Below, one piece after another: positions 21,911 to 54,143 of a stretch of DNA of 64,000 nucleotides. The number at the start of each line of letters is the position of its first letter. Within the stretch, counting starts at the first letter, position 1. Origin of the DNA: Pseudomonadota bacterium (GTDB lineage: Bacteria > Desulfobacterota > Binatia > UBA9968); contig JAJPJQ010000051.1 of NCBI GenBank assembly GCA_021324155.1, positions 199,293 to 263,292 on the forward strand, given 5' to 3'. The notes beneath the pieces are model-generated. The model did no database searches. It had not been told where the DNA came from and worked only from the letters and a program-made list of their open reading frames with translations. The translations under genes and the position numbers were made by a program.

Positions 21911-21963
21911 GCCGCGCGTTAATTTGACACGGCGGCTTAATAAATTTATACATAGTTATCTTT

Positions 21964-34744: not shown

Positions 34745-34821
34745 TGGTGGTCGCAGTAGGAGTTGAACCTACGACCTCGCGCATGTGAGGCGCGCGCTCT
34801 AACCAACTGAGCTATGCGACC
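34745..34821 (-). tRNA. tRNA-Val (anticodon CAC)
   Basis: Reverse complement GGTCGCATAGCTCAGTTGGTTAGAGCGCGCGCCTCACATGCGCGAGGTCGTAGGTTCAACTCCTACTGCGACCACCA folds as a cloverleaf. 7-bp acceptor stem, anticodon loop CTCACAT (U33, CAC, A37), T-loop TTCAACT, encoded CCA. Confidence 0.85.
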
Positions 34822-34870: not shown

Positions 34871-35164
34871 TCACTTGCCGGGCGGGAAGCTCGCGCTCAG
34901 GTATTTCGTAATCTTCTCCGCCTCGTCGGGGAAGATCTGCGCGCCGCGCGCGAGCATGTCGTTGACGCTGCGCTCCCATTCCTGCGGCGTCTTGCGCGAC
35001 TGCACGACCTTCTGGAGGTTGTGGCAGCCGGTGCAAAGCTCTTTGGTCTCCTGCTGTCCGTCGCCGGCCGGCAGCATCGCCACCCATGCGTCGGCGGACC
35101 AGAGGAGCGCGATCGGGGTGAACAGTCCGGTGACAAAAATCAAAGCTGCGAAAATTCCGCGCAT
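34871..35164 (-). CDS. small periplasmic c-type cytochrome (class I)
   Basis: ~97 aa. N-terminal hydrophobic signal/anchor, single CTGCH heme-binding motif, and a distal Met-containing region. Confidence 0.6.
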   Translation of the reverse strand: MRGIFAALIFVTGLFTPIALLWSADAWVAMLPAGDGQQETKELCTGCHNLQKVVQSRKTPQEWERSVNDMLARGAQIFPDEAEKITKYLSASFPPGK

Positions 35165-35170
35165 CAAACC

Positions 35171-35268: not shown

Positions 35269-37167
35269 TTACGCCTTCTTCGACCTCATTTCGGCGATTG
35301 AGACCTTTGGATACCAGTTCATGTTCGCGCCCTGCCCGGCCTGGGCGACCAGCACGTCGAGCAGGTAGGGCTTGCCGTCGCGCGTGGCATTGACGGCGCG
35401 CTGCATCGCGGGCTTCAAGTCTTTCGGGTCGGCGACAACTTCGCCCTTGATGTCGTACGCCTCGGCGATCTTGGCGAAGTTCACGTCCGGGTTGCCGAGG
35501 TGGCTCAGCATGTCGAGCTTCTTCTCGCGCTGGTTCTTGCCGCGCGTCCACATGCGGTTGCGCGTCTCGTTGTAGCTTCGGTTGTTGAAGACGACCGTGA
35601 TGATCGGCGCCTCGTGGCGGCGCATCGGCCAGAGCGCCTCCGTTTGGTTGAAGAGCATGCCGCCGTCGCCCTGGAGCGCCCAGACCTGTTGATTGGGCTT
35701 CGCGAGCTTGACGCCGATCGCCGCGGGCAAGCCCCAGCCGAGGCATTCGCCGGTGGTGCGGCCGAGCTGGGTTTTGGCGCCGTAGCCGATATTGATGTGG
35801 TCCATGCACTTGTTGCGCTGTGAGCCGAACTCCTCGACGATGATGGCGTCCTTGTCGGCGATCGCCTCGATCTCCTTGCCGACGCGGTCCCACTCGATCG
35901 GCTTGTTGTCCCAGATTTTCTTCGCGTTCGCCTCGCGCCCGGCGCGGAGCCGTTCGGTGAACTTCTTCGTCTCGTCGAAGCGCGCCTGACGAATTTTTTC
36001 GATGCGGTCCTTCGTCGCGACCGCCTTAACGGCGTCGATCAAGTCGCGCAGCGATTCGCGGACGTTGCCGACCAGCGCGTCCTCGATGGCGATCCCGTCG
36101 CCGAGGTGGCGCACGTCGGTGCCGGCGACGACCGCCGGAACTTTTTTCTCCGCCACGAAGCTTTCGTTTGCTTCGTCCCACCGCGCCCCGATATTCATAA
36201 AGAAGTCCACGTTCTGCGGATACCGGATCTGACCGCGCATCTGGCCGAGATAAAGCGGGTGCTGGTTCGGGAAAACCTGACAGAGCTGGCCGCGCTCGAA
36301 GATCGGAACGCCGAGCAGCTCGACCAGCTCGACGATCTCTTTCTGCCCGCCGCTCTGATAAACCTCGGGGCCGATGTTGAACAGCGGGCTCTTCGCCTCG
36401 ACCAGCATCTTCGCCGTTTTCTCGACCGTTTTGGCATTGGGCCGCACGTTCATCGGCACGTCGAATGTGCCGGGCATAAAAATTTTCGTTTTGGCCTTCA
36501 TCTCGAACATGACGTCGCGCGGGAACATCATATAGGTCGGACCGGAAGGCAGCGTCGACGCCACCTTGAACGCCTTCGCCGTCCACTCCGGCACGCGCGC
36601 GACCTCTTTCGGAATCCAGCGCCACTTGGTGTACTGCTTCATCGGCTCGAGCATGTCCTCGAGGTCCTCGTGGCCGTCGCGTCCGTCTTCCGTCGTGTCC
36701 GCGCGGTCGACTGCGATGACGAGCGGAATGCGGTCTTTCATCGCGTTGTAGATGTTGCCCGTCGAATGGGCCGCGCCGACGCGGCTGTACATGCAGAACG
36801 CCGTCTTGCCGGTCGCGAGCGCGTAGCCGCTCGCCATCGCCACCACGTGCGCCTCGTGCGTGGCGAGCACAAGTTTGAGCTTGGGCCGGTCGATGACGGC
36901 ATCGCAGAGCGCGCCGAGGCCCGAGCCGTTGCCGACGAAGAGGTATTCGTTGCCGGTCTGGAGCAGCTGCTCGGCGAGCAGCTCGCCGCCGTTGCCTTCG
37001 AATTCTTTCCAGTATTCTTTGCCGGCGGTCTCGGCGTGCGCCACCGGCGCGAGATTTTTGAGAATCGATTCCGCCGCGGTCATCGTGAAGCCGGCCGCGG
37101 CCATCGCCTTCAGGAAACCGCGGCGGGAAAGACCGAGGTCGAGATAATCTTTAACGAGCGCGCGCAT
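35269..37167 (-). CDS. thiamine-diphosphate-dependent enzyme (ALS/PoxB/benzoylformate-decarboxylase-like) with twin-arginine signal
   Basis: 632-aa ORF with the three-domain ThDP-enzyme layout. The ThDP-binding GDG...NN block is GDGGMLFNQTEALWPM..ITVVFNNRSYN. The N-terminus LSRRGFLKAMAAAGFTMTAAES...AHA is a consensus Tat signal (S-R-R-x-F-L-K). Antisense ORF 36106..37200 rejected. Confidence 0.7.
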   Translation of the reverse strand: MRALVKDYLDLGLSRRGFLKAMAAAGFTMTAAESILKNLAPVAHAETAGKEYWKEFEGNGGELLAEQLLQTGNEYLFVGNGSGLGALCDAVIDRPKLKLVLATHEAHVVAMASGYALATGKTAFCMYSRVGAAHSTGNIYNAMKDRIPLVIAVDRADTTEDGRDGHEDLEDMLEPMKQYTKWRWIPKEVARVPEWTAKAFKVASTLPSGPTYMMFPRDVMFEMKAKTKIFMPGTFDVPMNVRPNAKTVEKTAKMLVEAKSPLFNIGPEVYQSGGQKEIVELVELLGVPIFERGQLCQVFPNQHPLYLGQMRGQIRYPQNVDFFMNIGARWDEANESFVAEKKVPAVVAGTDVRHLGDGIAIEDALVGNVRESLRDLIDAVKAVATKDRIEKIRQARFDETKKFTERLRAGREANAKKIWDNKPIEWDRVGKEIEAIADKDAIIVEEFGSQRNKCMDHINIGYGAKTQLGRTTGECLGWGLPAAIGVKLAKPNQQVWALQGDGGMLFNQTEALWPMRRHEAPIITVVFNNRSYNETRNRMWTRGKNQREKKLDMLSHLGNPDVNFAKIAEAYDIKGEVVADPKDLKPAMQRAVNATRDGKPYLLDVLVAQAGQGANMNWYPKVSIAEMRSKKA

Positions 37168-37200: not shown

Positions 37201-37554
37201 TCAGTTTTTCTTCTTCGGGATCAGCTCGACGATCAATCCATCGGGGTCGCGGAACTTGATGCGCCCCCCGGCGGTCTTTTCTATAACAGGCGCGCCCAGT
37301 TCGGCAAGCAGCGGCACGAACGATTCGACGTCGTCGACCTCCATGCCGATATGATCGAACGGCCCCGGCGGCGCCGCTTCGGGCTTGTCGTACTGCGTGA
37401 ACGTGAGATCGATGGCATCGTCTTTCAAGTGCAGCGCCATATGGTCGCGCACGCGATGCGTGCCCGTATGCTCGAAGCCGAAAAGCCGCTGGTAAAATGC
37501 GCGGCTCTTTTCCAGATCGCCGCTCTTGATCGCCAAGTGCGTCACTTTGCTCAT
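37201..37554 (-). CDS. VOC-family protein (glyoxalase-like)
   Basis: 117-aa ORF. THLAIKSGDLEKSRAFYQRLFGF and HIGMEVDD are typical VOC motifs. Confidence 0.65.
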   Translation of the reverse strand: MSKVTHLAIKSGDLEKSRAFYQRLFGFEHTGTHRVRDHMALHLKDDAIDLTFTQYDKPEAAPPGPFDHIGMEVDDVESFVPLLAELGAPVIEKTAGGRIKFRDPDGLIVELIPKKKN

Positions 37555-37574: not shown

Positions 37575-38537
37575 TTAGTGCGCCGCCTCGAGCTGCTTGA
37601 TAAAACCGCTTTTTTCCAGCTCGGCCAGCGGCTGGAGCGAAAAAATTTCCTCGGCCTTGAGCTTGCCGACCAGCGGATCGCGCGCCGCCATGATGTCGAT
37701 CGTCGCCTTAGCCGCCGTCAAGTCGCCGACCGGTCGCAATCCCATCTGATGCTGCGGGTGCGTCTTGTAAATCACTTCCAGCGCCTCAGCGTCGGTTAGG
37801 CGTAAGAAGTCCTTGAGATAGGCGAGGCTCTTGGCCTTCTCACGGAGAAAGAAGCGCGCGCCTTCGATGTAGGCTCTCAAAAAGCGCTGCACCGTGTCCG
37901 GTTTTTTCGCGACCCACGTCGGCGACGCGACGATGGCGCTGCCGAAGAACGGCAGCGTGGGCATATCGAGCACGCGAAAACCCATGCGCCGTGCGTAATA
38001 CGATTCGCCGGACGACAGCACGGTCGCCTCCAGCGCGCCCTTCTCCAAAGATATGAGCCGCGCCTGGCCGACCTGGATAATCTGAATATCCTTGTCGGGG
38101 TCGAGGCCAAGCCGCTGGAATAGATAGCGCACCATCAGCTCGGAGATGCCGCCGAAACGGATGATGCCGACGCGCTTGCCCTTCAATTGCTTCACGTCCT
38201 TGATCTCCGGGCGCGTCACGACGTCGTAATCGAGCGTGTTCGACTGCGAGACGAGAAACGTGAGCTTGACGCCGTGCGCCATCGCCTGCAGCGCGGCGAC
38301 CGGCGCGCGCAGATCCAGGTCGACGTCGCCGTTGATGAGCGCGCTCACCGCCGCGGGACCGCCGGTGATGAGAATGATCTCGGTATCGAGGTTGTATTTC
38401 TTGAACAGCCCGGCGCGGTCGGTCACGTAAGTGACGATCGCCGTATTGCCACTGACCGAAGCATAAGAGATGCGGAGCTTTTCAGCCCCCGCCGGAGCGG
38501 CTAGGCATAGGATGAAAACGAGGCAGAGCGTGCGCAT
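37575..38537 (-). CDS. ABC-type substrate-binding protein, NMT1/THI5 (SsuA/TauA-like) family
   Basis: 320-aa ORF with a signal peptide. LKGKRVGI family motif. Paralog of the others. Confidence 0.7.
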   Translation of the reverse strand: MRTLCLVFILCLAAPAGAEKLRISYASVSGNTAIVTYVTDRAGLFKKYNLDTEIILITGGPAAVSALINGDVDLDLRAPVAALQAMAHGVKLTFLVSQSNTLDYDVVTRPEIKDVKQLKGKRVGIIRFGGISELMVRYLFQRLGLDPDKDIQIIQVGQARLISLEKGALEATVLSSGESYYARRMGFRVLDMPTLPFFGSAIVASPTWVAKKPDTVQRFLRAYIEGARFFLREKAKSLAYLKDFLRLTDAEALEVIYKTHPQHQMGLRPVGDLTAAKATIDIMAARDPLVGKLKAEEIFSLQPLAELEKSGFIKQLEAAH

Positions 38538-39686
38538 CTATTGCACTACGAACTGGAGCGTCTCGTTCCGTTCCTTCTGTTCTTCGTAGAGCGCGGTGAA
38601 GCGCATGCCGATTTTGAAATGAGACCGGTCGGGGACGCCTTCGATATCGGTCGCATTGGAGATCCTCAGCGCGAGCGGCTTGCCGTCTTCCGTCGAAACC
38701 GTGAGATAGCGCCCTTCTTCTTCGATCTTGTCGATCTTCCCTTTCACCGTTCTCTCGTTGACGGTCGTAATTTCGGGACCTTCGCCGCGGAGCTCGCGAT
38801 AGATCGTCGCAGCGATGACCGGGTAATGCGCCTCGCGGTCCCAGCCCTTGTACTCCTCCATGCGGAAATTTTTCCGGATCGCTTCGAGCGGCATGCCCTT
38901 TTCCATCATTGCGCGGACTTTCTGCCGCGCGATGACAAGGTAGTCGATCATCGCCTGCAGATCGGTCGTGCCCATAAGCGGCCCGTGCGCCGGCACGATG
39001 ACCTTGGGCTTGAGAGCGATCAGCGCTTCGAGCTGCTTCATCATGCCGACGGTCGTGCCGTGGCTATAGTCGGGGCGGATGTCGGGATGGCGCTCTTTGT
39101 AGCCGGCGAAACCGGCATGGAGAACGCCTTCCTCAGGCATCCAGACTGCGATGTCGCCGGGATTGTAAGCGTCGTCGACGTAGATCAGCTCCATCGTTTT
39201 GCCGCCCAGGCGAAGCGTCATGCGGTCCGTAAACGTGAGCGCGGCGTCGAGCGGATGAAAATTTTTCAGCGCCTCGCTTCGCTCGGGAAAGCGCTTGCGC
39301 CAGGTATTCACCTGGTATGGCTTCCAGCCGGCCCACTCCTTCGCGGTGCGCGCGTGCAGCACGACCGTCGCGGGCGGCGAGAAGAGTGGCGTGCCGCCGA
39401 TGTGATCGCCGTGATTCTGCGTGATGACGACGTAGCGCACCGGCTGCTGCGTCACGGCCTGAATGTGCTTCTGGATGTTCCGCGTCTCGGGCTGGTTATT
39501 GCCGGTGTCGATCACCACGACGCCTTGCGAAGTCACGACAATCATCGCGTTGGCGTCGTTGAGCTTGCCGACGTACGCGTAGACACCGTCGGCGAGCTTT
39601 TTGAATTCCGCCTTGTCGGGCGTGATGGCGTGGACGGGCGTCGCAAACGCGGCGAGCATCACCGCGGCGAAAAAAGCTTTTCTCAC
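38538..39686 (-). CDS. secreted MBL-fold metallo-hydrolase (Q-x-H-x-D-H variant) with C-terminal extension
   Basis: 382-aa ORF with a signal peptide. TQNHGDH metal motif (Gln at the first ligand position), then later His and Asp ligands. Carries ~70 extra C-terminal residues compared with the three downstream paralogs. Confidence 0.7.
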   Translation of the reverse strand: MRKAFFAAVMLAAFATPVHAITPDKAEFKKLADGVYAYVGKLNDANAMIVVTSQGVVVIDTGNNQPETRNIQKHIQAVTQQPVRYVVITQNHGDHIGGTPLFSPPATVVLHARTAKEWAGWKPYQVNTWRKRFPERSEALKNFHPLDAALTFTDRMTLRLGGKTMELIYVDDAYNPGDIAVWMPEEGVLHAGFAGYKERHPDIRPDYSHGTTVGMMKQLEALIALKPKVIVPAHGPLMGTTDLQAMIDYLVIARQKVRAMMEKGMPLEAIRKNFRMEEYKGWDREAHYPVIAATIYRELRGEGPEITTVNERTVKGKIDKIEEEGRYLTVSTEDGKPLALRISNATDIEGVPDRSHFKIGMRFTALYEEQKERNETLQFVVQ

Positions 39687-39687
39687 T

Positions 39688-40605
39688 CTAGTTTCCCTTG
39701 ACTGCGCGGTACGCCGCCTCGATGTTATTGGGGAAACGATCTTTGCCCTCCCAGTCTTCGGTCCCGGGAACTTTCAATTCCTTCTTGATCTCGTCGAGCG
39801 ATTTGCCCTGCTTGACCATGGCGGTCACGCCCTTCATCAGCGCATCGTAATAGTTTTCCATGTCGTCGAGGATCTTCGCCGTACCCGGAACGCCGTGGCC
39901 GGGAATCACGACCTCGGGCTTGAGCGCCTGCATCATCCTAATCGCGTCGAGCGTGTCCGGGATGCTGACGAACGGACGGTGATTGCCGAAGCGCTTCACG
40001 CCCACTGACGCCGCCGTGAACAGCACGCGCTCTTTCGGCAGCCAGATCGCCGTGTCCGCCTCGCTGTGGACGTTTTTCAAATAGTAAAGCTCGAATGTGC
40101 GCTCACCCACAGTAAGCGTCATGCGGTTGCGGTACTCGACGTGCGGCGGCACGAGGCGGAAGCCCTTGAATGCATCGCGCATCTCGGGGGATTTTGCCGT
40201 CTCCCGCTCGATGCGCGCCGGACTGAAGGATTCGGACTGTTTCATCGACGCGCTCGCGCCGCTCGCCGCAACCACGACGGCCGGCGGCGAGAACACGAAA
40301 TCGCCCATGACGTGGTCCGGATGTGGCTCGGTATGGATGACGAAGCGCACGGGATCGGAACCGAGCTTTTTGACCGCCGCAGCAACAACATAAGAGTCTT
40401 TCGGGCTCTGGCCGGCGTCGATAAGGACGACGCCGTCGCTCGTGCGTATGATCGTGCTGTTGGCCTCGTTGAGCACTGCCGCGTAGACGTAGATGCCATC
40501 CTTCACCTGCTTGAAGTGAGGCCCGAGATCCTGCGCCGACGCCGGCGCGGCGAGCCAGAGGCCCAGCGCCGCGAGATAAACAGCGAGAGAAAATTTGGTT
40601 TTCAT
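39688..40605 (-). CDS. secreted MBL-fold metallo-hydrolase (E-x-H-x-D-H variant)
   Basis: ORF 39688..40680 trimmed to MKTKFSLAVYLAALGLWLAAPASA. HTEPHPDH motif, then VHSEAD and PGHG downstream ligand blocks. Confidence 0.7.
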   Translation of the reverse strand: MKTKFSLAVYLAALGLWLAAPASAQDLGPHFKQVKDGIYVYAAVLNEANSTIIRTSDGVVLIDAGQSPKDSYVVAAAVKKLGSDPVRFVIHTEPHPDHVMGDFVFSPPAVVVAASGASASMKQSESFSPARIERETAKSPEMRDAFKGFRLVPPHVEYRNRMTLTVGERTFELYYLKNVHSEADTAIWLPKERVLFTAASVGVKRFGNHRPFVSIPDTLDAIRMMQALKPEVVIPGHGVPGTAKILDDMENYYDALMKGVTAMVKQGKSLDEIKKELKVPGTEDWEGKDRFPNNIEAAYRAVKGN

Positions 40606-40613
40606 CGAACGCC

Positions 40614-41528
40614 TCACTTCCCTTGCACCGCGCGGTAAGCCGCTTCGATGTTGCCGGGGTATCGTTCCTTCGTTGCCCACCCGTCGTACTCGGGCATTTT
40701 GACGGTCTTTTGAATTTCGTCGAGGGATTTTCCCTCGCGCGCCAGTTTGCCGACCCGCTCGAGCAGTAGAGCATAGTAGCGCTCGGAATCGTCAAATATC
40801 TTCGTCGTTCCGGGAATGCCGTGTCCGGGAATGACGGATTCCGGATTGAGCGCCTTCATCATTTTCGCCGCTGCGAGAATATCTGGAATGTTGACGTTGG
40901 GCCGGAAGACGTTGAACTGCTCGACCACGACCGCCGAGGCGGAAAAGAGCACGCGCTCCTTCGGCAGCCAGACCGCAGAGTCGGCTTCGCTGTGGACATT
41001 TTTCATGTAGTAAAGCTCAAAAGTCCGCTCGCCCACGTTGAGCGTCATTCTGTCGCGGTATTCCACGTGCGGCAGCACCATGCGATAGCCTTCGAACGCC
41101 GCGCGCATCTCGGGCGACGACTCCGCGAGCTTGCGGTTGCGGTCGGGATCGGCTTTGTCGCGCGCGAGCATCGATTCGCCCGCCCCTTTCGCCGCGATGA
41201 TCGTCGCCGGCGGCGAGAAGACGAAATGGCCCGTCGTGTGGTCGGGATGCGGCTCGGTATCGATGAGGAAGCGAATGGGCAGCGGCGTGATTTTTTTGAC
41301 CGCGTCGGCGATCGCCCTGGAATCCGTCGGATTATGCCCGCTGTCGATCAGCACGACGCCTTCCTGCGTCACGACAATGCCGCAATTGGAGTTGAGGTTT
41401 TTGCCGACATAGACGTAAATGCCGTCCTTGAATTTTTTGATCTGCGGTCCCAGATCCTGGGCCGGCAGCGGCGCGGCGATGAGCCACAAAGCCACGGCGA
41501 AGAGCGCGGAGAAAAATTTGAGCTTCAT
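40614..41528 (-). CDS. secreted MBL-fold metallo-hydrolase (E-x-H-x-D-H variant)
   Basis: Trimmed to MKLKFFSALFAVALWLIAAPLPA. DTEPHPDH, VHSEAD and PGHG blocks. ~60% identical to 39688..40605 by eye. Confidence 0.7.
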   Translation of the reverse strand: MKLKFFSALFAVALWLIAAPLPAQDLGPQIKKFKDGIYVYVGKNLNSNCGIVVTQEGVVLIDSGHNPTDSRAIADAVKKITPLPIRFLIDTEPHPDHTTGHFVFSPPATIIAAKGAGESMLARDKADPDRNRKLAESSPEMRAAFEGYRMVLPHVEYRDRMTLNVGERTFELYYMKNVHSEADSAVWLPKERVLFSASAVVVEQFNVFRPNVNIPDILAAAKMMKALNPESVIPGHGIPGTTKIFDDSERYYALLLERVGKLAREGKSLDEIQKTVKMPEYDGWATKERYPGNIEAAYRAVQGK

Positions 41529-41539
41529 GAGCTCCCCTC

Positions 41540-42481
41540 TCACTTACCCTTAAGTGTGGCGTAGGCGACATCGATGTTGACGCCCAGGCGGTCCTGGCCG
41601 GCCCACTCGGCGTACTCGGGCATTTTGAGCTCTTTTTTGATCTCGTCCAGCGATTTCCCCTTTTTCGACATTTCGTCCACGCGCTTCATGAGCAGCGTGT
41701 AGAAACCTTCGTACTCGTCGAAAATTTTCGCCGTCGTGGGCTGGCCGTGGCCCGGAACGACGACCTCGGGATTGAGCGCGCGCATCACCTTGTAGCCTGC
41801 GAAGACGTCGTTAAAGCGGACATGCGGGCGAAGGTTGATCATCGTCTTGACGTTCGCCGCCGAGCCGGCGAACAGCACGCGCTCCTTCGGCAGCCAGATG
41901 ATCGAATCGGCCTCGCTGTGGACGTTCTTCAGATAGATCACCTCGAAGGTGCGCTCGCCGAGCTGAATGGTCAGCCGATCTTTATATTCGATCTGCGGCG
42001 CGATGAACTTGTAGTTCTTCACGACCTCGGCGACGTCGGGCGACTGCTTCGCAAGCGTCTCGGCCCGTTTGGGATCGAGCCCTTTTTTCATGCCTTCGGC
42101 CGCGCCCTGCGCATTGAACACGACCGCCGGAGGCGAGAACACGAAATGATTCCAGGTGTGGTCGTTGTGCACTTCGGTGTCGACAAGAAAGCGGATCGGC
42201 TTGTCGGTGACTTTTTTTACCGCCGCCAGCATTTTTTTCGAATCCAGCGAGTTGTTGCAGCTGTCGATCATCAACACACCGTCATTGGTGACCACCATGC
42301 TGCAGGTCGTTGTTGTCTGATCGGGAGCGAACGTGTAGATGCCGTCTCTCACCTTGTGAAAGCCGGGGCCGAGGTCCTGAGCGTTAGCGGTACGAGGAGC
42401 CGACGTCGGCGGTCTTTCGGTCGAGCAGCCGACGGCGAATAGAAAGGACGCGGCGCAAGCCGCAAAGAGCTTGACTCTCAT
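41540..42481 (-). CDS. MBL-fold metallo-hydrolase lipoprotein (E-x-H-x-D-H variant)
   Basis: 313-aa ORF. Lipobox AVGC after the signal. DTEVHNDH, VHSEAD and PGHG blocks. Fourth tandem paralog. Confidence 0.7.
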   Translation of the reverse strand: MRVKLFAACAASFLFAVGCSTERPPTSAPRTANAQDLGPGFHKVRDGIYTFAPDQTTTTCSMVVTNDGVLMIDSCNNSLDSKKMLAAVKKVTDKPIRFLVDTEVHNDHTWNHFVFSPPAVVFNAQGAAEGMKKGLDPKRAETLAKQSPDVAEVVKNYKFIAPQIEYKDRLTIQLGERTFEVIYLKNVHSEADSIIWLPKERVLFAGSAANVKTMINLRPHVRFNDVFAGYKVMRALNPEVVVPGHGQPTTAKIFDEYEGFYTLLMKRVDEMSKKGKSLDEIKKELKMPEYAEWAGQDRLGVNIDVAYATLKGK

Positions 42482-42577: not shown

Positions 42578-44113
42578 TTACTTAAAATCGGGTTTCTCCT
42601 TCATGTAGAACTTTTCCAGCGCCGGCCGGTAGCGGTCCATAATTTCTTTATTCAAGTGGATCGGCGGCTTTTGATCGGGCGGCAGGAACGATTTGTATTG
42701 CACAGCGCCGATCTCCTTTTTGAACGTCTCTTTGGCTTGCGCCACCAGAGCAGGATCGGCGAAAAAATCCACAACGGAAGCCGCGAGCGCCTTGGCGCCG
42801 ACGACCGCGCCTTTATGCGCTAGCGACGTGGCGGGCGCGACGCCGGCAGCCCAATGGTGCGCCGGAATGCCGGGGATATTGGACGGGAAGGACACCCGCC
42901 CCGTCGGAACGATCCACGTCACCTCTCCGGAATCGTTCGACGACGCCGTCTGGCGCGACTCGCGAAGCGCCTCGACCTTGTGATGGAGGCCGATCACCGG
43001 CGCGCCCTGCTTTTTTTGTAGTTCCTTGGCGAGCGCTTCCTCCTCCTCGCTCCACTTCGGCATGCCGATGAGCTCCATGTTTTTCTGCGTTACTTCGGCG
43101 AGCGTCTTATTGCCGCGGGTCGGCCAGATCGCGCTGAAGACCTGAAAGCTCCACTGCGTGCCGGTCATGAGCGCCGCGCCCTCGGCGATCTTCTTCGCCT
43201 TATCGAAGTTCGCCTGCGCGCGCTCGATCGTCGTCTCGCGGAAGAACCACCAGATTTTGGCCAGCGGTGGGATGACGTTTGGCTGATCGCCGCCGAAGCT
43301 GATCACTCGATGGCTCCGCTGCGTGGGCTCCAGATGCTCGCGCAGCTTGTCGAAGCCGATGTCCATCAGCTCCGCCGCGTCGACGGCGTCTCTCCCATGC
43401 CATGGCGCCGATGCCGCGTGCGAAGTCTGCCCTTTGAACGTGAATTCCGCCGAGATGAGCGCGTATTGGCGGACACCGTACTCGGTCTTGAGCTCTTCGC
43501 CGACATGATCGTGAAACGCTATGTCGACGTCTTTAAAGTAGCCATCACGGACGAAGTACGGCCGCGGGATCAGAAGCTCCTCGGCCGGCGAGCCGAAGAT
43601 CTTGAGTGTCCCCTTGAGCTTGAATTGATCCATCGCTTTTTTTATGGCGAAAGCCGCGCCGATCATAACCGCCGCGTTCGTGTTGTGGCCTTCGGCGTGT
43701 CCCGGCGCGCCTTCGACCATCGGCTTGTGGTCGGTGACGCCGGGCGTCTGCGAGTTCCCCGGTGTTGTATCGTACTCGGTATGGATCGCGATCACCGGCG
43801 CGCCCGAACCGTATGTAGCCATGAACGCGGTCGGCATGCCGGATATCCCGCGCTCCACTTTGAAGCCGCCCTTCTCGAGAATCCCGGTCATGAGCTTCGA
43901 GGTTTCGAACTCCTGCATGCCCAGCTCGGCGAAATAGAAGATGTTGTCGCCGAGAAGCGCGATCGCCTTGGCGTTCTCGTCGACCGATTTGAAGACGACT
44001 TCTTTTTGCGCCGACAGATTCTGCGCCGCGGCCGGCACGGCGCCGAGAATCCACACGGCGAGCGACAACAGGGCGGCGAGTCGGAGCGCAGTTTTGCGGT
44101 TGGTGAAAAACAT
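42578..44113 (-). CDS. secreted M20-family amidohydrolase (AbgB/hippurate-hydrolase-like)
   Basis: 511-aa ORF with a signal peptide. Metal-ligand blocks (IAIHTEYD, GHNTNAAV, HDHVGEE) and a dimerisation-domain insert are typical of M20D peptidases. Confidence 0.7.
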   Translation of the reverse strand: MFFTNRKTALRLAALLSLAVWILGAVPAAAQNLSAQKEVVFKSVDENAKAIALLGDNIFYFAELGMQEFETSKLMTGILEKGGFKVERGISGMPTAFMATYGSGAPVIAIHTEYDTTPGNSQTPGVTDHKPMVEGAPGHAEGHNTNAAVMIGAAFAIKKAMDQFKLKGTLKIFGSPAEELLIPRPYFVRDGYFKDVDIAFHDHVGEELKTEYGVRQYALISAEFTFKGQTSHAASAPWHGRDAVDAAELMDIGFDKLREHLEPTQRSHRVISFGGDQPNVIPPLAKIWWFFRETTIERAQANFDKAKKIAEGAALMTGTQWSFQVFSAIWPTRGNKTLAEVTQKNMELIGMPKWSEEEEALAKELQKKQGAPVIGLHHKVEALRESRQTASSNDSGEVTWIVPTGRVSFPSNIPGIPAHHWAAGVAPATSLAHKGAVVGAKALAASVVDFFADPALVAQAKETFKKEIGAVQYKSFLPPDQKPPIHLNKEIMDRYRPALEKFYMKEKPDFK

Positions 44114-44188: not shown

Positions 44189-45274
44189 TCAGCGCGCTCC
44201 GAGAAGCTTGCGGACGCGCTCGGCCGCCTCTTGCCTGCCGGTCGTGATCCACTGCCATTCGGCTTCGTCGAAGTAGCGCACGCCGGCGCGCGGAATAGCC
44301 GCGGGGTTCAGGAACGATTCGTCCACATCGCGCCGCAGAGTCGGCGCGCCGAAGCCTTTGGAATAAATTCCCAGACCCTCTTTGGAAACGATCCAGTTGG
44401 CGAACACGAGGGCGGCATTCGGATGCGGCGCGCGGCCGGCGACGGTCAGAAGCCATGGCGAGGCGTTGATCGTCGGTGCGATCGGCGGGAGTTCAAAGAT
44501 TTCTTCGATCTTGAATCCCTCCTGCTGAAGTGGCCGCACGTTGTCCTCGTCGCAGTTGAGACATATCGGATGCGTGCCGCGGGCGAGCCAGTCGGCCATC
44601 TGCCTGCGCTCGCGACTTAAGGCCGGCTTCTGATCGCGGAAGAGCCTGACTACGAAGTCTTCGCCCATCTGGAGCAGGAAGCGGCCCGCTTTGTTGGCGC
44701 CTGCGCCCACCGTCGCGGGGTCCTCGCTCGCAATCTTGCCGCGCCAGCGTGGCTGGAGCAGATCCGCCGCTGTGCGCAGGTCGTCGGGCCTGACGTAATC
44801 CCTGTTGATGTGGAACTGGCTTCTGACGCCGCTGAACGGACGAAGCACATAGCGCTCCTCGGGATCGGCGAACCAGAGCTTACCGTTTTTCCACCTCGAC
44901 GGATCGGTAACCTCCGGCAGCATCAGCAGCGGCCTCAGTGGATCGAGCATCCGCTCCTTGTAAAGCACCTGAGCGGTCGTATCCGGACCGGCGAGGAAAA
45001 CGTCCATGACATAAAGGCCGGCGTTGCGCTCGTTGCGGACGCGCGCGGCGATCTCGCTCGAGCGGCCGGCGACGAACTCGACCTGAATGCCGAAGCGCGC
45101 GGCAAAGCGCGGGATGATTTCCTTGCGCATCACGGGATCGGGAAAGCCCGCGACGACAACCGATCCTTCCTTTTTTCCCGCTGCAACGGCGGCGTTCCAG
45201 CTTTTCTCCCAGTGAGCGGTCTGAGCAAAAGCCGGCGGCGCCGCAAGGAGGCCGATCAACAGAAGGCGCAGCAT
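44189..45274 (-). CDS. extracellular solute-binding protein, family 1
   Basis: 361-aa ORF with signal peptide MLRLLLIGLLAAPPAFAQ. SVVVAGFPD... resembles the Fe3+/polyamine-type PBP2 N-terminus. Confidence 0.5.
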   Translation of the reverse strand: MLRLLLIGLLAAPPAFAQTAHWEKSWNAAVAAGKKEGSVVVAGFPDPVMRKEIIPRFAARFGIQVEFVAGRSSEIAARVRNERNAGLYVMDVFLAGPDTTAQVLYKERMLDPLRPLLMLPEVTDPSRWKNGKLWFADPEERYVLRPFSGVRSQFHINRDYVRPDDLRTAADLLQPRWRGKIASEDPATVGAGANKAGRFLLQMGEDFVVRLFRDQKPALSRERRQMADWLARGTHPICLNCDEDNVRPLQQEGFKIEEIFELPPIAPTINASPWLLTVAGRAPHPNAALVFANWIVSKEGLGIYSKGFGAPTLRRDVDESFLNPAAIPRAGVRYFDEAEWQWITTGRQEAAERVRKLLGAR

Positions 45275-45282
45275 CGCGAATC

Positions 45283-46284
45283 CTAACCCAGCGGGATCAC
45301 CCGACCCGACCGCAAGACGCTGAGCACGGTCGGATCGAAGACCTGCCGGCCGTTATGATCGGCGTCATCGAATCGAAAACGTCCGGTCGCGCCAGCGATT
45401 TCCGCTCCCGACTCGAGATCGTCGAGCGCGTGCGCTAATTTTCCTTCCGCGCCTGCGAGAGCGTCCGCGAGCAGCATCATCGCGTCCCAGCCGAAGCCGT
45501 GGTTTGCAGTCGGCAACGGGACGGCGCCAGCGCCGAGAGCGTCGACGAACTCCGCTTCTTCCGCGCTGCGCGGCGCGCCGCGCCGGAACATGTCGACGAA
45601 GTAGAAGCCTTCGGCCGAGCCGCCGACTCGCTCGATAAAACTCGGGCGCAGCAAAGAGCGTCCGAGCAGGAGCGGCATGCGCGGAGATATTTGCCGCAGT
45701 TTTTGCGCGAGCGGCAGCGCGCGCGTTTCGTCGGAAAGGACCAGATACGTGAGTTCCGGCCGCCACGAGCCGATCTCGTCGGGCCAGTCGGGCCGCGCGG
45801 CCGACACGGCGCACACCACCGCGCCTGCGGCGGCGAGAAACGAGGCGGTGTTGTCGGCGACGCGCTTTTGGAATTCCGTCTCGTCGTGAAGCAGGAAGAC
45901 ACGCCGGACACCGGCGACGCGCAGCAATTGGTCGGCGACGGACGCTGCGGTCATGCGCGTCGGCACGCCGATGTGAAAAACCGTCCGGCGGTTTTGCCGG
46001 ACCGCGGGATTGTTGTTGGCGACGAAACAGAGAAAATTAAATTCTTCGGAAAGCTCGCCGAGGCGAGTCGATTCGGGAACACCTGTCGCGCCGACGACAC
46101 CGTCGATCCTGCCGGCGTCCGGCGCGAGCGTCGAAGCGAGATCATCGAGATCACCGCGGCGAAACGTCTTCCTTTCGATCTCGACGCTTCGCCGCCGGGC
46201 CGCGAGCGTCGCGCCCAGCGACTGATCGACCGGCGACGGATCCTCGCCGGAGGGCCGGACGAGCAGAATGCGTAGCTGCGGCAT
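45283..46284 (-). CDS. periplasmic-binding-protein type I-like (LivK/ANF-receptor-like) protein, no clear signal peptide
   Basis: 333-aa ORF with high GC3. Alternating beta-alpha pattern. The family assignment is tentative. Confidence 0.35.
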   Translation of the reverse strand: MPQLRILLVRPSGEDPSPVDQSLGATLAARRRSVEIERKTFRRGDLDDLASTLAPDAGRIDGVVGATGVPESTRLGELSEEFNFLCFVANNNPAVRQNRRTVFHIGVPTRMTAASVADQLLRVAGVRRVFLLHDETEFQKRVADNTASFLAAAGAVVCAVSAARPDWPDEIGSWRPELTYLVLSDETRALPLAQKLRQISPRMPLLLGRSLLRPSFIERVGGSAEGFYFVDMFRRGAPRSAEEAEFVDALGAGAVPLPTANHGFGWDAMMLLADALAGAEGKLAHALDDLESGAEIAGATGRFRFDDADHNGRQVFDPTVLSVLRSGRVIPLG

Positions 46285-46293
46285 CGCGAATAC

Positions 46294-47298
46294 TTATTTA
46301 CTCGAACCGTACAACCGATCGAAGAATCCTTCTTGCTCCAATTCCCGAACCAGGCTGGCATCGATCAAATCTTCGGCCTTTTTGCCTTTGACACCAGGCT
46401 TCGCGCCGAATTCTTCGAGGCCAAGGCCGACCGCCTCAGCCTTGGGAAACGGCTTCTGCGGAATCGCGCCGAGCACGTACGTGCGGTACATGAAATCGAG
46501 CAGCGCCGGATCGCGCACGCCGATGTATTGGGTAAAAATGCGGTCCGCAGCCGCGCGGTCGCGGCGCGCAAGCGCGGTCGCGTCGCACATCGCCTTGAGG
46601 AAATTTTTCACGGTCGCGCGGTCGCGCCGAAGCACCGCGCTCGCTACCGCGAAATCGACGCCGGCGCCGATGTAGAGCTTCAGGCTCTCGTTGTCGGCGA
46701 GCACGCGGACTTTATCCATCTCGCCGCGCCGCTCCAGCTCGAAGAGATTATCCTCGTTGCTGGTCGTCGCGTCGATCTTGCCGGCAATGAGCGCCTTCAG
46801 ACGCTCGACGCTGCGCCCGCCGATCGGCACAAGCGTGACGTCGCGCTCGGGATCGAGACCGACGCGGAGAAGCGCCTGGTGCGTAATTCTGTCCTGGCTG
46901 CTGCCGAGCTCGCCGGTGCCGACGCGCTTGCCTTTGAGCTGCGACGGCGCGGTGATTTCCGGCCGCGTCAAGAGCTTGAGAACGCTGTAACCTGTGTTGG
47001 CGATGAAGCCGAGAGCGGCGCCATCGCCGATGGCAGAAACAATGTACGGCGCCGTTGCGGCGTACATGTCCGCGTCGCGGCGCGCGAGCGCCGCCAGCAG
47101 CTCGTCGCTCGACGCCGGCTCCTTCAATGCGACGTCGACGCCGTATTTCTTGAACAGCCCGGCGTCGCGCGCGAGCCAGAGCGGAAGCTTCGGCGGCCGC
47201 GGCGGGTAGGAAACGATAGTGAGGTTTTTCTCCTGCGCCCACGCCGGATGGATCAACGCGCAAAACAAGATCGATAGGAGGATCAAACCGCTTTTCAT
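46294..47298 (-). CDS. ABC-type substrate-binding protein, NMT1/THI5 (SsuA/TauA-like) family
   Basis: 334-aa ORF with a signal peptide. LKGKRVGTGELGSS family motif. Confidence 0.7.
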   Translation of the reverse strand: MKSGLILLSILFCALIHPAWAQEKNLTIVSYPPRPPKLPLWLARDAGLFKKYGVDVALKEPASSDELLAALARRDADMYAATAPYIVSAIGDGAALGFIANTGYSVLKLLTRPEITAPSQLKGKRVGTGELGSSQDRITHQALLRVGLDPERDVTLVPIGGRSVERLKALIAGKIDATTSNEDNLFELERRGEMDKVRVLADNESLKLYIGAGVDFAVASAVLRRDRATVKNFLKAMCDATALARRDRAAADRIFTQYIGVRDPALLDFMYRTYVLGAIPQKPFPKAEAVGLGLEEFGAKPGVKGKKAEDLIDASLVRELEQEGFFDRLYGSSK

Positions 47299-47332: not shown

Positions 47333-48763
47333 TTATTTCCCCGCTTCCTGCTCGGGACGGTCGACGATCGGGCGCGGGATGGGATTCTTGTAATCCGGAT
47401 GAAACGCGAGGTCGACCGGCTTGCCGTCCATAAAGAATTTCTCGACGCGCATCGTCGCCCGGATGTCGTTGGCGACATCGCCGTTCACGATGACGATGTC
47501 GGCGACCTTGCCTTTCTCGACGCTGCCGTAATCTCTTTGACGGCCCCACGCCTCGGCGACGTTAAGACTGACGCCCTCGATCGCCTGGATGGGCGTGAGA
47601 CCCGCTTCGACGGCCATCTCGAGCTCGGCGTGCAAGCCGTAGCCGGCGAGAATCGCATCGGGATCGGAGCCCAGATGAATTTTGCCGCCTGCCGCGACGA
47701 AGCGGCGGGCGAACTCCTGCACGTTCTTATATCCCTGCTCGAGCCGAGCGCGTAGCTCCGGCGGAGCTTTGGCGAAGAGCGAGTAAAGCTTCTCGACGTC
47801 CTTCGGAATGTAGGACGGAAGATAGCGAAGGTTGGGATCGTTCAAGAGCGCGGCTTCCTCTTTGCGCATGTCGGCGCCGCGGCGGGCGATCGGCCGGTAC
47901 GTCGTGCCCCAGGTCGGACTCCAGTGGACGTTGCGCGCGACCATCGTCTTGATGAGCTTGTCGAACTGGTCGCGCTCCATGAACGAGAGCGCTTCGGCGG
48001 TGCTCATTTTTCCGGTGATGCGCGCGAAGTCGATCTCTTTTTTCTTTTTCGGGTCCGTGATCGTGGTAAACAGCACAGACCACGCGTGCTCGACGGACTG
48101 ATAGCCCGCATCGGCCGACACATAGATATCCAGCGTATGGCCGATCACCGGCTTGCCGGCGCGGTGCGCCTCCTCGGCGGCCGCCTTGGCATCCTGCGGC
48201 CGGAGCCGCTCGAAGAGCTTGAAGCCGTCGACTCCTTTCGCGATTGCGGCGCGCACCGCCGCGCGCGCCTCCTCTTCGTTGTTGACGAACGTGCTCATGC
48301 GCTGACGCCGCAGTCCGCCCATGCCCTCCGGCGGCGGCCCATCGATCACGTTACCGTTGGCCCAGACGCGCGGGCCGCGGATGGTGCCGTTCTTCACCCC
48401 CTCGCGCTGCGCAATCACCCAGTCGGTCGGATTGTTCGAGATCGTCGGGCATGTGGTGATCCCGAAATGTAGATAGATCTCGCCCATCCAGTCGCGTAGG
48501 TGGCAATGGCCGTCGATCAGTCCGGGCAGGATTGTCCTGCCTTTGGCATTGATCACCTCGGCTCCGTCGGGCGGCTTGACCTCGCCGCGACGGCCGACGT
48601 CGCGGATGCGGCCGTCCTGGAACACGACGACGGCATCGGCGATGGGAGCGCGGCCGGTGCCGTCGATCAGCGTGCCGCCGTCGATGACGACCGGGCGGTT
48701 TTGCGCTGTCGCGTTCGCGGCGGCGAGCGCGAGCATTGCGAGCGCGAAAAAATAGATTTTCAT
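47333..48763 (-). CDS. secreted amidohydrolase-family metal-dependent hydrolase
   Basis: 476-aa ORF with a signal peptide. ILPGLIDGHCHL (HxH) at the N-terminus, GKIHLGSD and a later Asp match the amidohydrolase-1 TIM-barrel fold. Confidence 0.7.
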   Translation of the reverse strand: MKIYFFALAMLALAAANATAQNRPVVIDGGTLIDGTGRAPIADAVVVFQDGRIRDVGRRGEVKPPDGAEVINAKGRTILPGLIDGHCHLRDWMGEIYLHFGITTCPTISNNPTDWVIAQREGVKNGTIRGPRVWANGNVIDGPPPEGMGGLRRQRMSTFVNNEEEARAAVRAAIAKGVDGFKLFERLRPQDAKAAAEEAHRAGKPVIGHTLDIYVSADAGYQSVEHAWSVLFTTITDPKKKKEIDFARITGKMSTAEALSFMERDQFDKLIKTMVARNVHWSPTWGTTYRPIARRGADMRKEEAALLNDPNLRYLPSYIPKDVEKLYSLFAKAPPELRARLEQGYKNVQEFARRFVAAGGKIHLGSDPDAILAGYGLHAELEMAVEAGLTPIQAIEGVSLNVAEAWGRQRDYGSVEKGKVADIVIVNGDVANDIRATMRVEKFFMDGKPVDLAFHPDYKNPIPRPIVDRPEQEAGK

Positions 48764-48837: not shown

Positions 48838-48878
48838 GCAAAAAGAAAGGCGGCGCCGCCCGTTGCCGGGCGACGCCG
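48838..48878 (-). terminator. rho-independent terminator (minus strand)
   Basis: Minus-strand GGCGTCGCCCGGCAACGGGCGGCGCC hairpin followed by TTTCTTTTTG, downstream of 48925..49212. Confidence 0.55.
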
Positions 48879-50762: not shown

Positions 50763-51166
50763 TTCGCCATCGTCTCGATCGCCTTCCATTGCGCATCGCT
50801 CACCGGCATCACGGAAAGCCGCGGCAGGCGCACGAGATCGAAGCTCTTCAGTTTCGGATCGGCCTTGACCTCGGCCAGCGTCACCGGCCGCGGCATCGCC
50901 TTATCCGCCTCGATGTCGAAGACGAGCAGCTTGGAGTCTTTCTTCGCGGGATCGGGATAGGCATCGCTCGCCGCGCGCGCCAGCCCGACGACCGCCTTCT
51001 CGTCCCCGGTGTGGTAAATCACGATCGCGTCGCCTTTTTTGATCGCCGCTATATGCTTCAGCGCGAGGTTGTTCTTGACGCCGTCCCACATCGTGCGCTT
51101 GTCTTTTTGCAATTGCGCGAACGAATAGGCGGACGGTTCGGTCTTCAATAACCAGCGGTTGGCCAT
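50759..51166 (-). CDS. EVE-domain (PUA-like) protein
   Basis: ORF 50759..51238 trimmed to MANRWLLKTEPSAYSF, a typical EVE N-terminus. ~135 aa. Confidence 0.65.
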   Translation of the reverse strand: MANRWLLKTEPSAYSFAQLQKDKRTMWDGVKNNLALKHIAAIKKGDAIVIYHTGDEKAVVGLARAASDAYPDPAKKDSKLLVFDIEADKAMPRPVTLAEVKADPKLKSFDLVRLPRLSVMPVSDAQWKAIETMAK

Positions 51167-51247
51167 GACCGGTTTTATAGACCGCGCAGCACGGCAATAC
51201 AACGCCTTGACTGTCCGCGCGCTTCCGAAGTATGCCACTTGTGGCTC

Positions 51248-52226
51248 TATGACATTTCCTTACCGCTGCCTGACCATTCTTTCCTGCGTTCTTGCGCTTT
51301 GTTCATCGGCGTTCGCGGCGGAGCGCCTCCGCGCGTCCTACGCCGCGCCCAACGCGAGCCAGTCGCCGCTCTGGGCGGCGCAGGCGCGCGGCTACTTCGC
51401 CAAATACGGTCTCGAAGTCGATCTCCTCTATATCAGCAGCGGCTCGCTCAACGTCCAGGCGCTCGTCGGCAACACCGTGCAGTTCGCCGCCGGCGGTCCC
51501 GCCGCGCTCGAGGCGCGGCTGCGCGGCCCGAAGCTCCTCACTATCGCCAATCCCTTGAACGTGCTCGCGAGCAACCTGGTCACGATTCCCGAGATCAAAT
51601 CGATCGCCGACCTGAAAGGCAAAATCGGCGGCATCTCGCGCTTCGGCTCGTCGACCCATCAGGGCCTGCGCTATTTATTCAGAACCAACGGCCTTAGCGT
51701 CGAGAACGATCTCAAGATGCTCCAGCTCGGCGGCGACGCGAGCCGCCTCGCCGCGCTGAAGGCGGGGAAAATCCAGTACACATTCCTCGGCGCCGCGGCG
51801 AGCGAGCAGGCGCGCGGCCAAGGCCTCAAGGTCCTCGCGACCGCGCGGCAGATGAACATCCCGTTTCCGTGGACCTCGGTCGTCGTCAACGAGCCGTGGC
51901 TGGAAGCGAACCGCGACACGGCTTACAGGTATGTAAAGGCAGTCACTGAAGCGATCCGCTTCATGAAGCATAATCGCGCCGAGAGCGAGAAGATGATCGC
52001 CAAGTATATGCGCATCGACGATCCGCGCCTCGCCAGCGTCGAGTACGAGTTCAACGTCGGACTTTTTCCCGACCTCCCCTATCCGACGCTCGACGGCATG
52101 AAGCTGATTCTGGAAAATCTCGCCGCCGAGACGCCGGAGTTCGCGCGCCATAAGCCGGACGAGTTCGCCGACTCTTCGCTGGTCGAGCGGCTCAAGCGCG
52201 AAAAGTTTGTAGAAAGCCTGAAATAG
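51248..52226 (+). CDS. ABC-type substrate-binding protein, NMT1/THI5 (SsuA/TauA-like) family
   Basis: ORF 51159..52226 trimmed to MTFPYRCLTILSCVLALCSSAFA (signal). LKGKIGGISRFGSS family motif. Confidence 0.7.
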
Positions 52227-53171: not shown

Positions 53172-54143
53172 ATGAAGGAATTGAAAAACGTTATCCTCGG
53201 CGGGCTCTGCGCCGCCGCCGTTTTACTTCACGCGGTGGCCGACGCGAAGCCGGTGACGTTCGCCTACCAGACGCCGACGCTCGGCAGCACGCTGCCGCTC
53301 GTCGTCGGCATCGAATTCGGCTACTTCCCCGCCGAGGGACTCGACGTCAAGTCGGTCTTCATTATCGGCGGGCCGACCGCGACCGCCGCGCTGATCGGCG
53401 GCGACGTCGACTACGCGCTCATCGCCGGCGTACCCGCCGTGCGCGCGATCGCCGCGGGCGCGCCGCTCATGATCGTCGGCGGCATGCAGCCCTACATCGA
53501 TTACACATTGATGGGCGCGAAAGGCATTGCGTCGCTGAACGATCTCAGGGGCAAAGTCGTCGGCGTCACCGGCGCGGGCGGCATCGCCGAATTCGCCTCG
53601 GTCGAAGGGCTGGCGAAAAAAGGCTTCGTGCGCGACCGCGACTACAAAGTTCTCTACGGCGTCGGCAACAGCCCGGCGCGCGCGCAGGCGCTGGAAGCGG
53701 GCCGCATCCAGGCGTCGCCGTTTTCTTTCATGGAAAAGATCGAGCTCGAGCGCAAAGGATTCCCGACGCTTTTCGACATCGGCGAGGTGGTGAGCAACTT
53801 CCCATTCGTCGTGATCGTATCGACGCGCAAGAAAGCCGAGAGCGACCCCGACGGCGTCGTCGCGCTGCTCCGCGGCCTCAAGCGCGGCATCGACGCCTTG
53901 AAGACCGATCCGGAAAAGGTCATCGCGATGGTGCTCAAGAAAAATAAGTACGGCGACGCCGCGACCGTGCGCAAAGTCGTTGAGCACTTCGCCGGGGCCT
54001 ACTCCGTCGCGATCACGCGCGAGGAGATTGATGCCGTGATCAGCGCCGCGCACATCGAGGCCGAGGCGAAGAAGCTCGGCGGCGCGGATAAATTTTTCAT
54101 CGGATCGTTTTCGGCGAAGGCGCTGGGAGTGGGAAAAAAATAG
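53172..54143 (+). CDS. ABC-type substrate-binding protein, NMT1/THI5 (SsuA/TauA-like) family
   Basis: 323-aa ORF with a signal peptide. LRGKVVGVTGAGG family motif. Confidence 0.7.
   Translation: MKELKNVILGGLCAAAVLLHAVADAKPVTFAYQTPTLGSTLPLVVGIEFGYFPAEGLDVKSVFIIGGPTATAALIGGDVDYALIAGVPAVRAIAAGAPLMIVGGMQPYIDYTLMGAKGIASLNDLRGKVVGVTGAGGIAEFASVEGLAKKGFVRDRDYKVLYGVGNSPARAQALEAGRIQASPFSFMEKIELERKGFPTLFDIGEVVSNFPFVVIVSTRKKAESDPDGVVALLRGLKRGIDALKTDPEKVIAMVLKKNKYGDAATVRKVVEHFAGAYSVAITREEIDAVISAAHIEAEAKKLGGADKFFIGSFSAKALGVGKK

Follow-up and report, generated by a model that had tools for sequence, protein, structure and literature searches.

Within the window, a 64,000-nucleotide (nt) stretch of DNA from an uncultured soil bacterium to whose positions all coordinates refer, four contiguous open reading frames (ORFs) are arranged head to tail on the minus strand (38538-42481). 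They encode proteins of the metallo-beta-lactamase (MBL) fold, referred to here as paralogs A to D, in which the first histidine of the canonical zinc-binding motif is replaced by glutamine (Q-type) or glutamate (E-type). The array consists of the following features, with protein lengths in amino acids (aa):

38538-39686, minus strand: paralog A (Q-type), 382 aa, GTG start, Sec signal
39688-40605, minus strand: paralog B (E-type), 305 aa from the ATG, Sec signal
40614-41528, minus strand: paralog C (E-type), 304 aa, Sec signal
41540-42481, minus strand: paralog D (E-type), 313 aa, lipobox FAVG/C19
38541-38774, minus strand: extra C-terminal domain of A, aa ~305-382, ~75 aa, five-stranded beta

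The genes are separated by gaps of 1, 8 and 11 nt. An initial annotation had described four consecutive minus-strand genes for MBL-fold proteins, which was confirmed by the ORF coordinates and by a HMMER search against Pfam: all four proteins matched Lactamase_B (PF00753), with 68.3, 54.2, 43.4 and 39.6 bits at a gathering score of 22.7, and the matches spanned profile positions 4-196 of 196. No fifth copy of the A-D type was found within the window. The exact sequences of all four are already publicly available on a 730,929-bp contig, where A is represented by a 373-aa gene call; the ATG start of B is the start used by the public gene calls, with a 305-aa call in locus L002. The public labels are just 'MBL fold metallo-hydrolase' or 'cyclase', no source carrying a specific name, and the nearest named relatives are metagenome-assembled genomes (MAGs) of Candidatus Binatia. 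Long plus-strand ORFs of 231-386 aa (38541-39701, 40821-41564, 41747-42442 and others) run antisense to the MBL genes. These are artefacts of the G+C content of about 60%, and homologs of them exist because the sense MBL genes are conserved.

All four proteins appear to be exported, three by signal peptides and one with a lipobox, as the initial annotation had stated and as judged by eye from the sequence. With the junction marked by a slash, the Sec signals end in ..ATPVHA/ITP in A, ..APASA/QDL in B and ..APLPA/QDL in C, and D carries the lipobox FAVG/C19 at its N-terminus. The lipobox of D is created by a 16-residue insertion, GCSTERPPTSAPRTAN (42380-42427, minus strand; D residues 19-34), which sits between the h-region of the signal and the conserved AQDLGP. 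In D orthologs elsewhere, including that of a 94%-related locus (L009) and the 302-aa members of the protein cluster, the insertion is absent and a plain Sec signal is present, and the signals of D orthologs in other genomes end in SLPAQDLGP. Paralog D seems to have become a lipoprotein only recently, having been a soluble periplasmic protein before.

The extra C-terminal part of A had been noted as well, and its existence was borne out: in the AlphaFold model it forms a domain of about 75 aa with five strands (residues 310-322, 327-332, 337-349, 362-369 and 374-381; predicted local distance difference test score, pLDDT, 91-97). The domain is retained in A orthologs of 380-391 aa and would have been added in the A lineage. 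A Pfam search gave no significant match for it, and a whole-protein Foldseek search with A gave no identity for this domain, the matches being dominated by the MBL domain.

Metal site and family placement

The metal-site residues were numbered according to the standard class B positions (given in brackets), and residues and codons were checked for all four paralogs:

Paralog A: Q90 (116), H92 (118), Y174 (196), D94 (120), H95 (121), H234 (263), F193 (221)
Paralog B: E93 (116), H95 (118), H180 (196), D97 (120), H98 (121), H237 (263), A199 (221)
Paralog C: E92 (116), H94 (118), H179 (196), D96 (120), H97 (121), H236 (263), S198 (221)
Paralog D: E103 (116), H105 (118), H188 (196), D107 (120), H108 (121), H245 (263), S207 (221)

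The first motif reads QNHGDH in A, EPHPDH in B and C and EVHNDH in D. In HMMER alignments, the Glu or Gln falls on the first His of HYHAVR in 8D2Z, an MBL-superfamily protein of Burkholderia cenocepacia, and on Ser112 of the chlorothalonil hydrolytic dehalogenase Chd (6UXU; SYHGDH). In addition, when the 150 best cluster representatives were aligned to a profile, all 67 of the nearest canonical relatives had His in the 116 column together with Asp221 and the other four ligands. The substituted residue therefore occupies the position of His116, and the proposal of Gln in one copy and Glu in three at the first ligand position was upheld; neither a conventional His116 nor clustering with a non-hydrolase MBL family was found. 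The canonical HxHxDH/H196/D-or-C221/H263 set is failed by all four proteins, as position 116 is Glu or Gln and position 221 is Ala, Ser or Phe, and the metal-bridging Asp221 is missing throughout. Paralog A also has Tyr at 196, so that three of its seven canonical positions (116, 196 and 221) are altered. The earlier statement that the same ligand blocks occur in each copy holds for VHSEAD, the block containing His196, in B, C and D but not in A, which has AYNPGD with Tyr174 at this place; the three blocks were located at about aa 90-105, 175-190 and 235-245 instead of the proposed 100, 200 and 260.

Conservation of these residues was determined in two ortholog sets of 120 sequences each, the closest relatives of C (72-100% identity) and those of A (62-93%). 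The motif ExHxDH is present in every C ortholog, with E116, H118, D120, H121 and H196 in 120/120 and H263 in 119/120; the Glu of HSEAD (E181 in paralog C) and D200 are also invariant. All 120 A orthologs have QxHxDH, and Q116, H118, D120, H121, Y196 and H263 occur in each of them. The E-type and Q-type clades described below also share an invariant Arg-Pro pair (R209-P210 in C), which varies in the canonical relatives. According to an alignment with GIM-1, the pair adjoins B1 position 233 in a loop lining the active site, and it may have a role there.

To place the proteins within the superfamily, profile, sequence and fold searches were compared. The SoxH-related families TIGR04558 and TIGR04559 were the top NCBIfam models for all four (72-123 bits at cutoffs of 280 and 300), the best being TIGR04559 (SoxH_rel_PQQ_2) with 104, 111, 123 and 99 bits, which missed its cutoff of 280. 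The model for beta-lactamase subclass B1 (NF033088) gave 56-64 bits at a cutoff of 200 (E values 1e-15 to 1e-17) and that for B2 (NF033087) 34-48 bits at a cutoff of 240 (1e-8 to 1e-12). The B3 model (NF033105) gave a score just for A (34.5 bits at a cutoff of 240) and was outside the best 25 models for B, C and D. Curated thresholds were missed for every named subfamily tested, namely B1, B2, B3, TIGR04558/TIGR04559 and Vmh, and the marker residues of B1 and B2 are lacking, as A-D have no Cys221 and have Glu or Gln instead of Asn116. The nearest canonical relatives likewise had their best scores with the SoxH-related models; these scores, 145-210 bits, were higher than those of A-D but did not reach the cutoffs. 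SoxH of bacteria is a member of the MBL family located in the periplasm, with an uncharacterised function, and literature searches on it returned nothing usable.

A sequence search of the PDB ranked 8D2Z and Chd at the top and B1/B2 enzymes next, and a search with a profile of 80 family members gave the same order, with 93.9 bits for 8D2Z and 82.6 bits for Chd. AlphaFold models of C and A were confident (pLDDT 91.9 and 90.2), and Foldseek searches with both returned 8D2Z first and then Chd. These were followed for C by alkylsulfatases and then B1/B2 enzymes, and for A by alkylsulfatases and B1/B2 enzymes interleaved. More than 500 PDB fold matches had an E value of at most 0.001, and the best 50 for each of the two models were all of the MBL fold. 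No B3 structure occurred among the best 60 PDB sequence and profile matches or among the best 50 Foldseek matches. Because of these NCBIfam, PDB and Foldseek rankings, A-D are placed in an unnamed SoxH-related radiation that includes Chd and 8D2Z and that, as far as sequence and predicted fold indicate, is nearer to B1/B2 than to B3. Membership of A-D in B3 was ruled out by the NCBIfam cutoffs together with the PDB rankings.

The solved relatives share different parts of the A-D architecture. Chd is an MBL-fold protein of about 300 aa that shares the C-terminal helical extension of A-D, the alignment reaching residue 294 of 300. Its first motif His is replaced as well and it has no His196, the catalytic metal being bound at an Asp-His-His site that matches the residues kept in A. 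Equivalents of H92, D94, H95 and H234 are present in Chd; however, Phe193 of A lies opposite Asn216, and the two proteins fall into separate clades. Chd further differs in having Ser at 116 rather than Gln or Glu and in lacking the C-terminal beta domain, and B-D have Ala or Ser opposite Asn216. 8D2Z is similar to A-D in length and architecture, but with the motif HYHAVR, GRG for PGHG, and His196 and Asp221 retained, it keeps the opposite half-site from paralog A. The type III alkylsulfatases SdsA1 and Pisa1 are also periplasmic hydrolases, and their MBL domain ranks just after Chd in the fold search with C; at about 630 aa, however, they include dimerisation and SCP2-like domains as well, and the TM-score normalised to the target reached only 0.35. 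The TIGR04558/TIGR04559 'quinoprotein relay system zinc metallohydrolase' families are periplasmic, as A-D appear to be. Their members would be expected in a gene cluster with a pyrroloquinoline quinone (PQQ) dehydrogenase; no PQQ domain was found among the annotated genes of the A-D cluster (34-54 kb).

The initial annotation had also pointed to rare B3 variants. At the level of formal ligand sets the likeness stands: the B3-E enzyme SIE-1 has EHH/DHH as in B, C and D, the B3-Q enzyme GOB has Q116 as in A, and both lack a ligand at 221 and are exported. The match is a formal one, A having Y174 at position 196, and matching residues are by themselves no proof of homology; sequence, profile and fold place A-D elsewhere. 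The likeness is best read as convergence without homology at the family level.

A neighbour-joining tree of 102 full-length sequences with 100 bootstrap replicates recovered the E-type and the Q-type clade in all replicates and both together in 98 (61 with the sequence P0254 inside, 37 without it). Every member of the E-type and Q-type clades among the 150 best representatives lacks Asp221, and the sequences outside the joint clade mostly have HHH/DHH with Asp221; in this tree the joint clade appears nested inside a canonical HHH/DHH+Asp221 radiation. The branch is marked by two changes, the loss of Asp221 and the replacement of His116, and is previously undescribed; using the motif terms EXHXDH and QXHXDH, no paper was found in the literature searched. 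P0254, a relative of 300 aa, has QHH/DHH with Gly221. In the reference tree it falls on the Q side of the split, and in 42/100 replicates it grouped with the Q-type clade specifically; it may be intermediate in evolution between the canonical and the Q-type site. Elsewhere in the tree, Glu or Gln at 116 occurs sporadically in Asp221 backgrounds (P0338, P0364 and P0381), demonstrating that the 116 substitution is recurrent. Recurrent Gln116 has been reported for B3, too (PMC10318434).

The four genes had been interpreted as a tandem quadruplication. The identity of A to the other three is only 31-33%, and that of C is 58% with B and 50% with D. The composition of the array also varies among genomes (D-C-B-A, D-B-A, D-A, C-C-A and C-B). 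A recent quadruplication was ruled out by these low identities, by the variable arrays and by separate C and A orthologs down to 62-72% identity. Since the site residues are invariant in the 120 C and 120 A orthologs, the comparison points to A-D being ancient paralogs whose orthologs are conserved separately.

Gene cluster and neighbours

The MBL genes lie inside a run of 13 co-directional genes with gaps of 0-101 nt. The order of the run is Amidohydro_1, NMT1, Peripla_BP_6, SBP_bac_11, M20D amidohydrolase, D, C, B, A, NMT1, VOC protein, thiamine diphosphate (ThDP) enzyme and cytochrome c. The features around A-D are:

47333-48763, minus strand: Amidohydro_1 enzyme (Pfam), signal peptide visible in the translation
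44189-47298, minus strand: three binding-protein genes, SBP_bac_11, Peripla_BP_6 and NMT1
42578-44113, minus strand: exported M20D-type amidohydrolase, directly upstream of D
37575-38537, minus strand: NMT1-type binding protein, directly downstream of A with a 0-nt gap
37201-37554, minus strand: VOC/glyoxalase-fold protein
35269-37167, minus strand: ThDP enzyme, 632 aa, twin-arginine translocation (TAT) signal with the motif LSRRGFLK
34871-35167, minus strand: small monohaem cytochrome c, ~100 aa, end of the co-directional cluster
34748-34821: tRNA, beyond the cluster end

The Amidohydro_1 gene is the probable first gene of the unit. Some 90 nt upstream of its start there is a strong terminator-like hairpin (48851-48878, minus strand; 12 pairs, 11 of them G-C, followed by a T-rich tail), probably the point at which transcription of the preceding unit stops and the 13-gene cluster begins. 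The best solved relatives of the Amidohydro_1 protein are phenylurea hydrolase B, molinate hydrolase and carboxypeptidase Cc2672. The M20D protein scored 189 bits with TIGR01891, above the cutoff of 153.75, and its best solved relatives are HmrA and an Xaa-Arg dipeptidase. At least four NMT1/SsuA-type genes occur within 17 kb (37575-38537, 46294-47298, 51159-52226 and 53172-54143), in addition to SBP_bac_11 and Peripla_BP_6, and no ABC permease or ATPase is present among the annotated neighbours of these binding-protein genes. The binding proteins look like orphans, and they recur beside MBL genes in Binatia loci.

In MAGs of Binatia and 'delta proteobacterium' a common order is kept, consisting of a methyltransferase, Amidohydro_1, NMT1, an optional M20 gene, one to three E-type genes, an optional Q-type gene, an optional NMT1-VOC pair, one to three ThDP enzymes and cytochrome c. 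In Alphaproteobacteria, Acidobacteriota and other MAGs the E-type and Q-type genes are single and their contexts variable. When the neighbours at 80 genome loci were clustered, no consistent operon partner was identified outside Binatia; the scattered neighbours there include TctC binding proteins, UbiD, Amidohydro_2, a flavin adenine dinucleotide (FAD) monooxygenase, a Vgb_lyase/SGL propeller, RidA and molybdenum cofactor (MoCo) enzymes. At five Q-type loci outside Binatia, among them L073 (11218-12927), the adjoining gene encodes a beta-propeller protein of about 570 aa (CarboxypepD_reg + Vgb_lyase/SMP-30-like), and RidA-family genes follow MBL genes in L007 (9904-10892) and L082 (2791-3228).

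At 80 metagenome loci (36-92% identity), most of the ThDP homologs have both the TAT motif and a neighbouring cytochrome c gene, so the TAT ThDP enzyme and cytochrome c are widespread as a pair in their own right. Adjacency to an MBL gene was restricted to ThDP relatives of at least 75% identity plus the metagenome contig L134, and an obligate link of the MBL genes to this pair was ruled out across these loci. Some Binatia loci carry three ThDP paralogs in tandem (ThDP/cytochrome c genes were seen in L009, L011, L020, L071, L082 and L089-L168). The best solved relatives of the ThDP enzyme, at about 120 bits, are benzoylformate decarboxylase, acetolactate synthase and cyclohexanedione hydrolase. 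A literature search on a periplasmic ThDP enzyme with cytochrome c found no paper; such a coupled system looks uncharacterised and may be more unusual than the MBL genes themselves.

The flanking exported hydrolases and binding proteins fit the periplasmic hydrolytic toolkit suggested by the initial annotation, but nothing in the cluster is specific to a xenobiotic, lactone or beta-lactam substrate. The context supports A-D as one of several exported catabolic enzymes.

Proposed function and alternative explanations

We consider A-D to be, with a probability of roughly 0.6, exported metallohydrolases of one derived SoxH-related MBL branch with a modified site, ancient paralogs that function in periplasmic catabolic hydrolysis. 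Their role would most likely be the catabolic hydrolysis of small organic molecules such as esters, amides or related compounds, and in Binatia the genes are probably co-transcribed within the 13-gene cluster. For metal stoichiometry, the role of Glu116 and the hydrolase chemistry, we infer different arrangements in the two types. B, C and D, with the formal ligands E116-H118-H196 and D120-H121-H263, would form a binuclear site with a bridging hydroxide as the nucleophile, Glu116 replacing the carboxylate and negative charge lost with Asp221. The precedent for the binuclear site is SIE-1 (B3-E), whose EHH/DHH site with Glu116 binds two zinc ions and is active (PMC10318434).

Paralog A retains only the D120-H121-H263 site and, of the other site, just H118, because His196 is Tyr, position 221 is Phe and His116 is Gln. 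It may be a mononuclear, Chd-like enzyme with H92 (118) as the general base, as judged from the single zinc of Chd at the homologous Asp-His-His site; in Chd, His114 reportedly acts as the base. The catalytic zinc ligands of Chd are Asp116, His117, Asn216 and His257 (PMC12784990). As Phe193 replaces the fourth ligand Asn216, the coordination sphere of A must differ from that of Chd.

Several points weigh against this explanation. The geometry of Glu116 and Arg209 at the metal site is presumed. The grouping of the E-type and Q-type clades comes from neighbour-joining, without maximum likelihood or B1/B2/B3 references. Carboxylate-rich MBL sites can bind iron or manganese and carry out non-hydrolytic chemistry. 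Finally, the cluster may not report the ancestral function, because the genes are single and their contexts variable outside Binatia.

Among the alternatives, an accessory role of A-D in periplasmic dehydrogenase or electron-transfer modules, either hydrolysis of lactone or ester products or a SoxH-like role in a quinoprotein relay, is unlikely. The two quinoprotein-relay families are the best NCBIfam models, and the TAT ThDP enzyme and cytochrome c follow downstream of A, past the NMT1 and VOC genes. Similar MBL-ThDP-cytochrome c layouts occur in Binatia, in Alphaproteobacteria (L071, L083 and L087) and on the contig L134, and in L006 the neighbourhood of an A ortholog includes a PQQ dehydrogenase, c-type cytochromes and a MauG-like peroxidase. 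However, the model scores are well under their cutoffs, most of the 80 ThDP loci have the cytochrome c yet no MBL gene, most loci with only an A-type gene have no adjoining oxidoreductase, and L006 is the only locus with a PQQ dehydrogenase near an A ortholog. A Chd-like activity of paralog A, and perhaps of the others, as hydrolytic dehalogenases or hydrolases of the nucleophilic aromatic substitution (SNAr) type is improbable, too. Chd is the second-best solved relative and likewise works without His116 and His196, using only the Asp-His-His site and a general-base His, but it branches outside the joint E-type and Q-type clade at an identity of about 20-22%, and its fourth ligand Asn216 corresponds to Phe193 in A. 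The same competence of Chd with an A-type residue set speaks against A-D being non-catalytic binding proteins or pseudoenzymes with a retained fold, as do the remaining ligands, which are invariant or nearly so in 240 orthologs down to 62% identity. Although the canonical site is degraded, most clearly in A with changes at 116, 196 and 221, and A-D sit among several orphan binding proteins, we regard the loss of catalysis as similarly improbable.

We see least reason to regard A-D as genuine class B beta-lactamases, i.e., a B3-like reservoir of carbapenemase-type enzymes with E116 or Q116. The formal ligand set of B, C and D is that of the B3-E enzyme SIE-1, Q116 is known in GOB, all four proteins appear to be exported, and there is weak similarity to the B1 and B2 models (E values as given above). 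Against this, the scores remain far from the subclass cutoffs (56-64 of 200 bits for B1, 34-48 of 240 for B2, and 34.5 of 240 for B3 with A only), no B3 chain occurs among the best 60 PDB or best 50 Foldseek matches, A lacks His196 and the Cys221 of B1/B2 is absent, and the locus shows no resistance or mobile-element context. A bolder version of the metallohydrolase explanation is quite unlikely in its full extent. Here, the E-type proteins would have acquired a B3-E-like binuclear EHH/DHH site by convergence on a B1/B2-related SoxH-like scaffold, the carboxylate having moved from 221 to 116, with the Q-type sister being mononuclear and Chd-like. Both would be widespread periplasmic hydrolases of uncultured soil bacteria with new chemistry, amide or beta-lactam-like bonds being possibly among their substrates, and would represent a further route to class-B-type catalysis.

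If the inferences behind the metallohydrolase explanation hold, the family contains a natural series from HHH/DHH with Asp221, via QHH/DHH without Asp221 (P0254), to EHH/DHH and Q-H-Y/DHH, displaying how a binuclear MBL site can be rebuilt or halved, and a second, independent occurrence of the E116 and Q116 solutions known from B3. Thousands of soil and groundwater sequences labeled 'MBL fold metallo-hydrolase' or 'cyclase' would then gain a defined subfamily, and screens for resistance should not take such proteins for B3-like beta-lactamases on the motif alone. As long as no substrate has been found, the practical impact is limited, and the interest is mainly for specialists of the MBL superfamily.

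An Rfam scan detected no regulatory RNA in the cluster; elsewhere in the window, a fluoride riboswitch (RF01734) was identified at 21958-22030 on the plus strand with 44.3 bits (gathering score 34).

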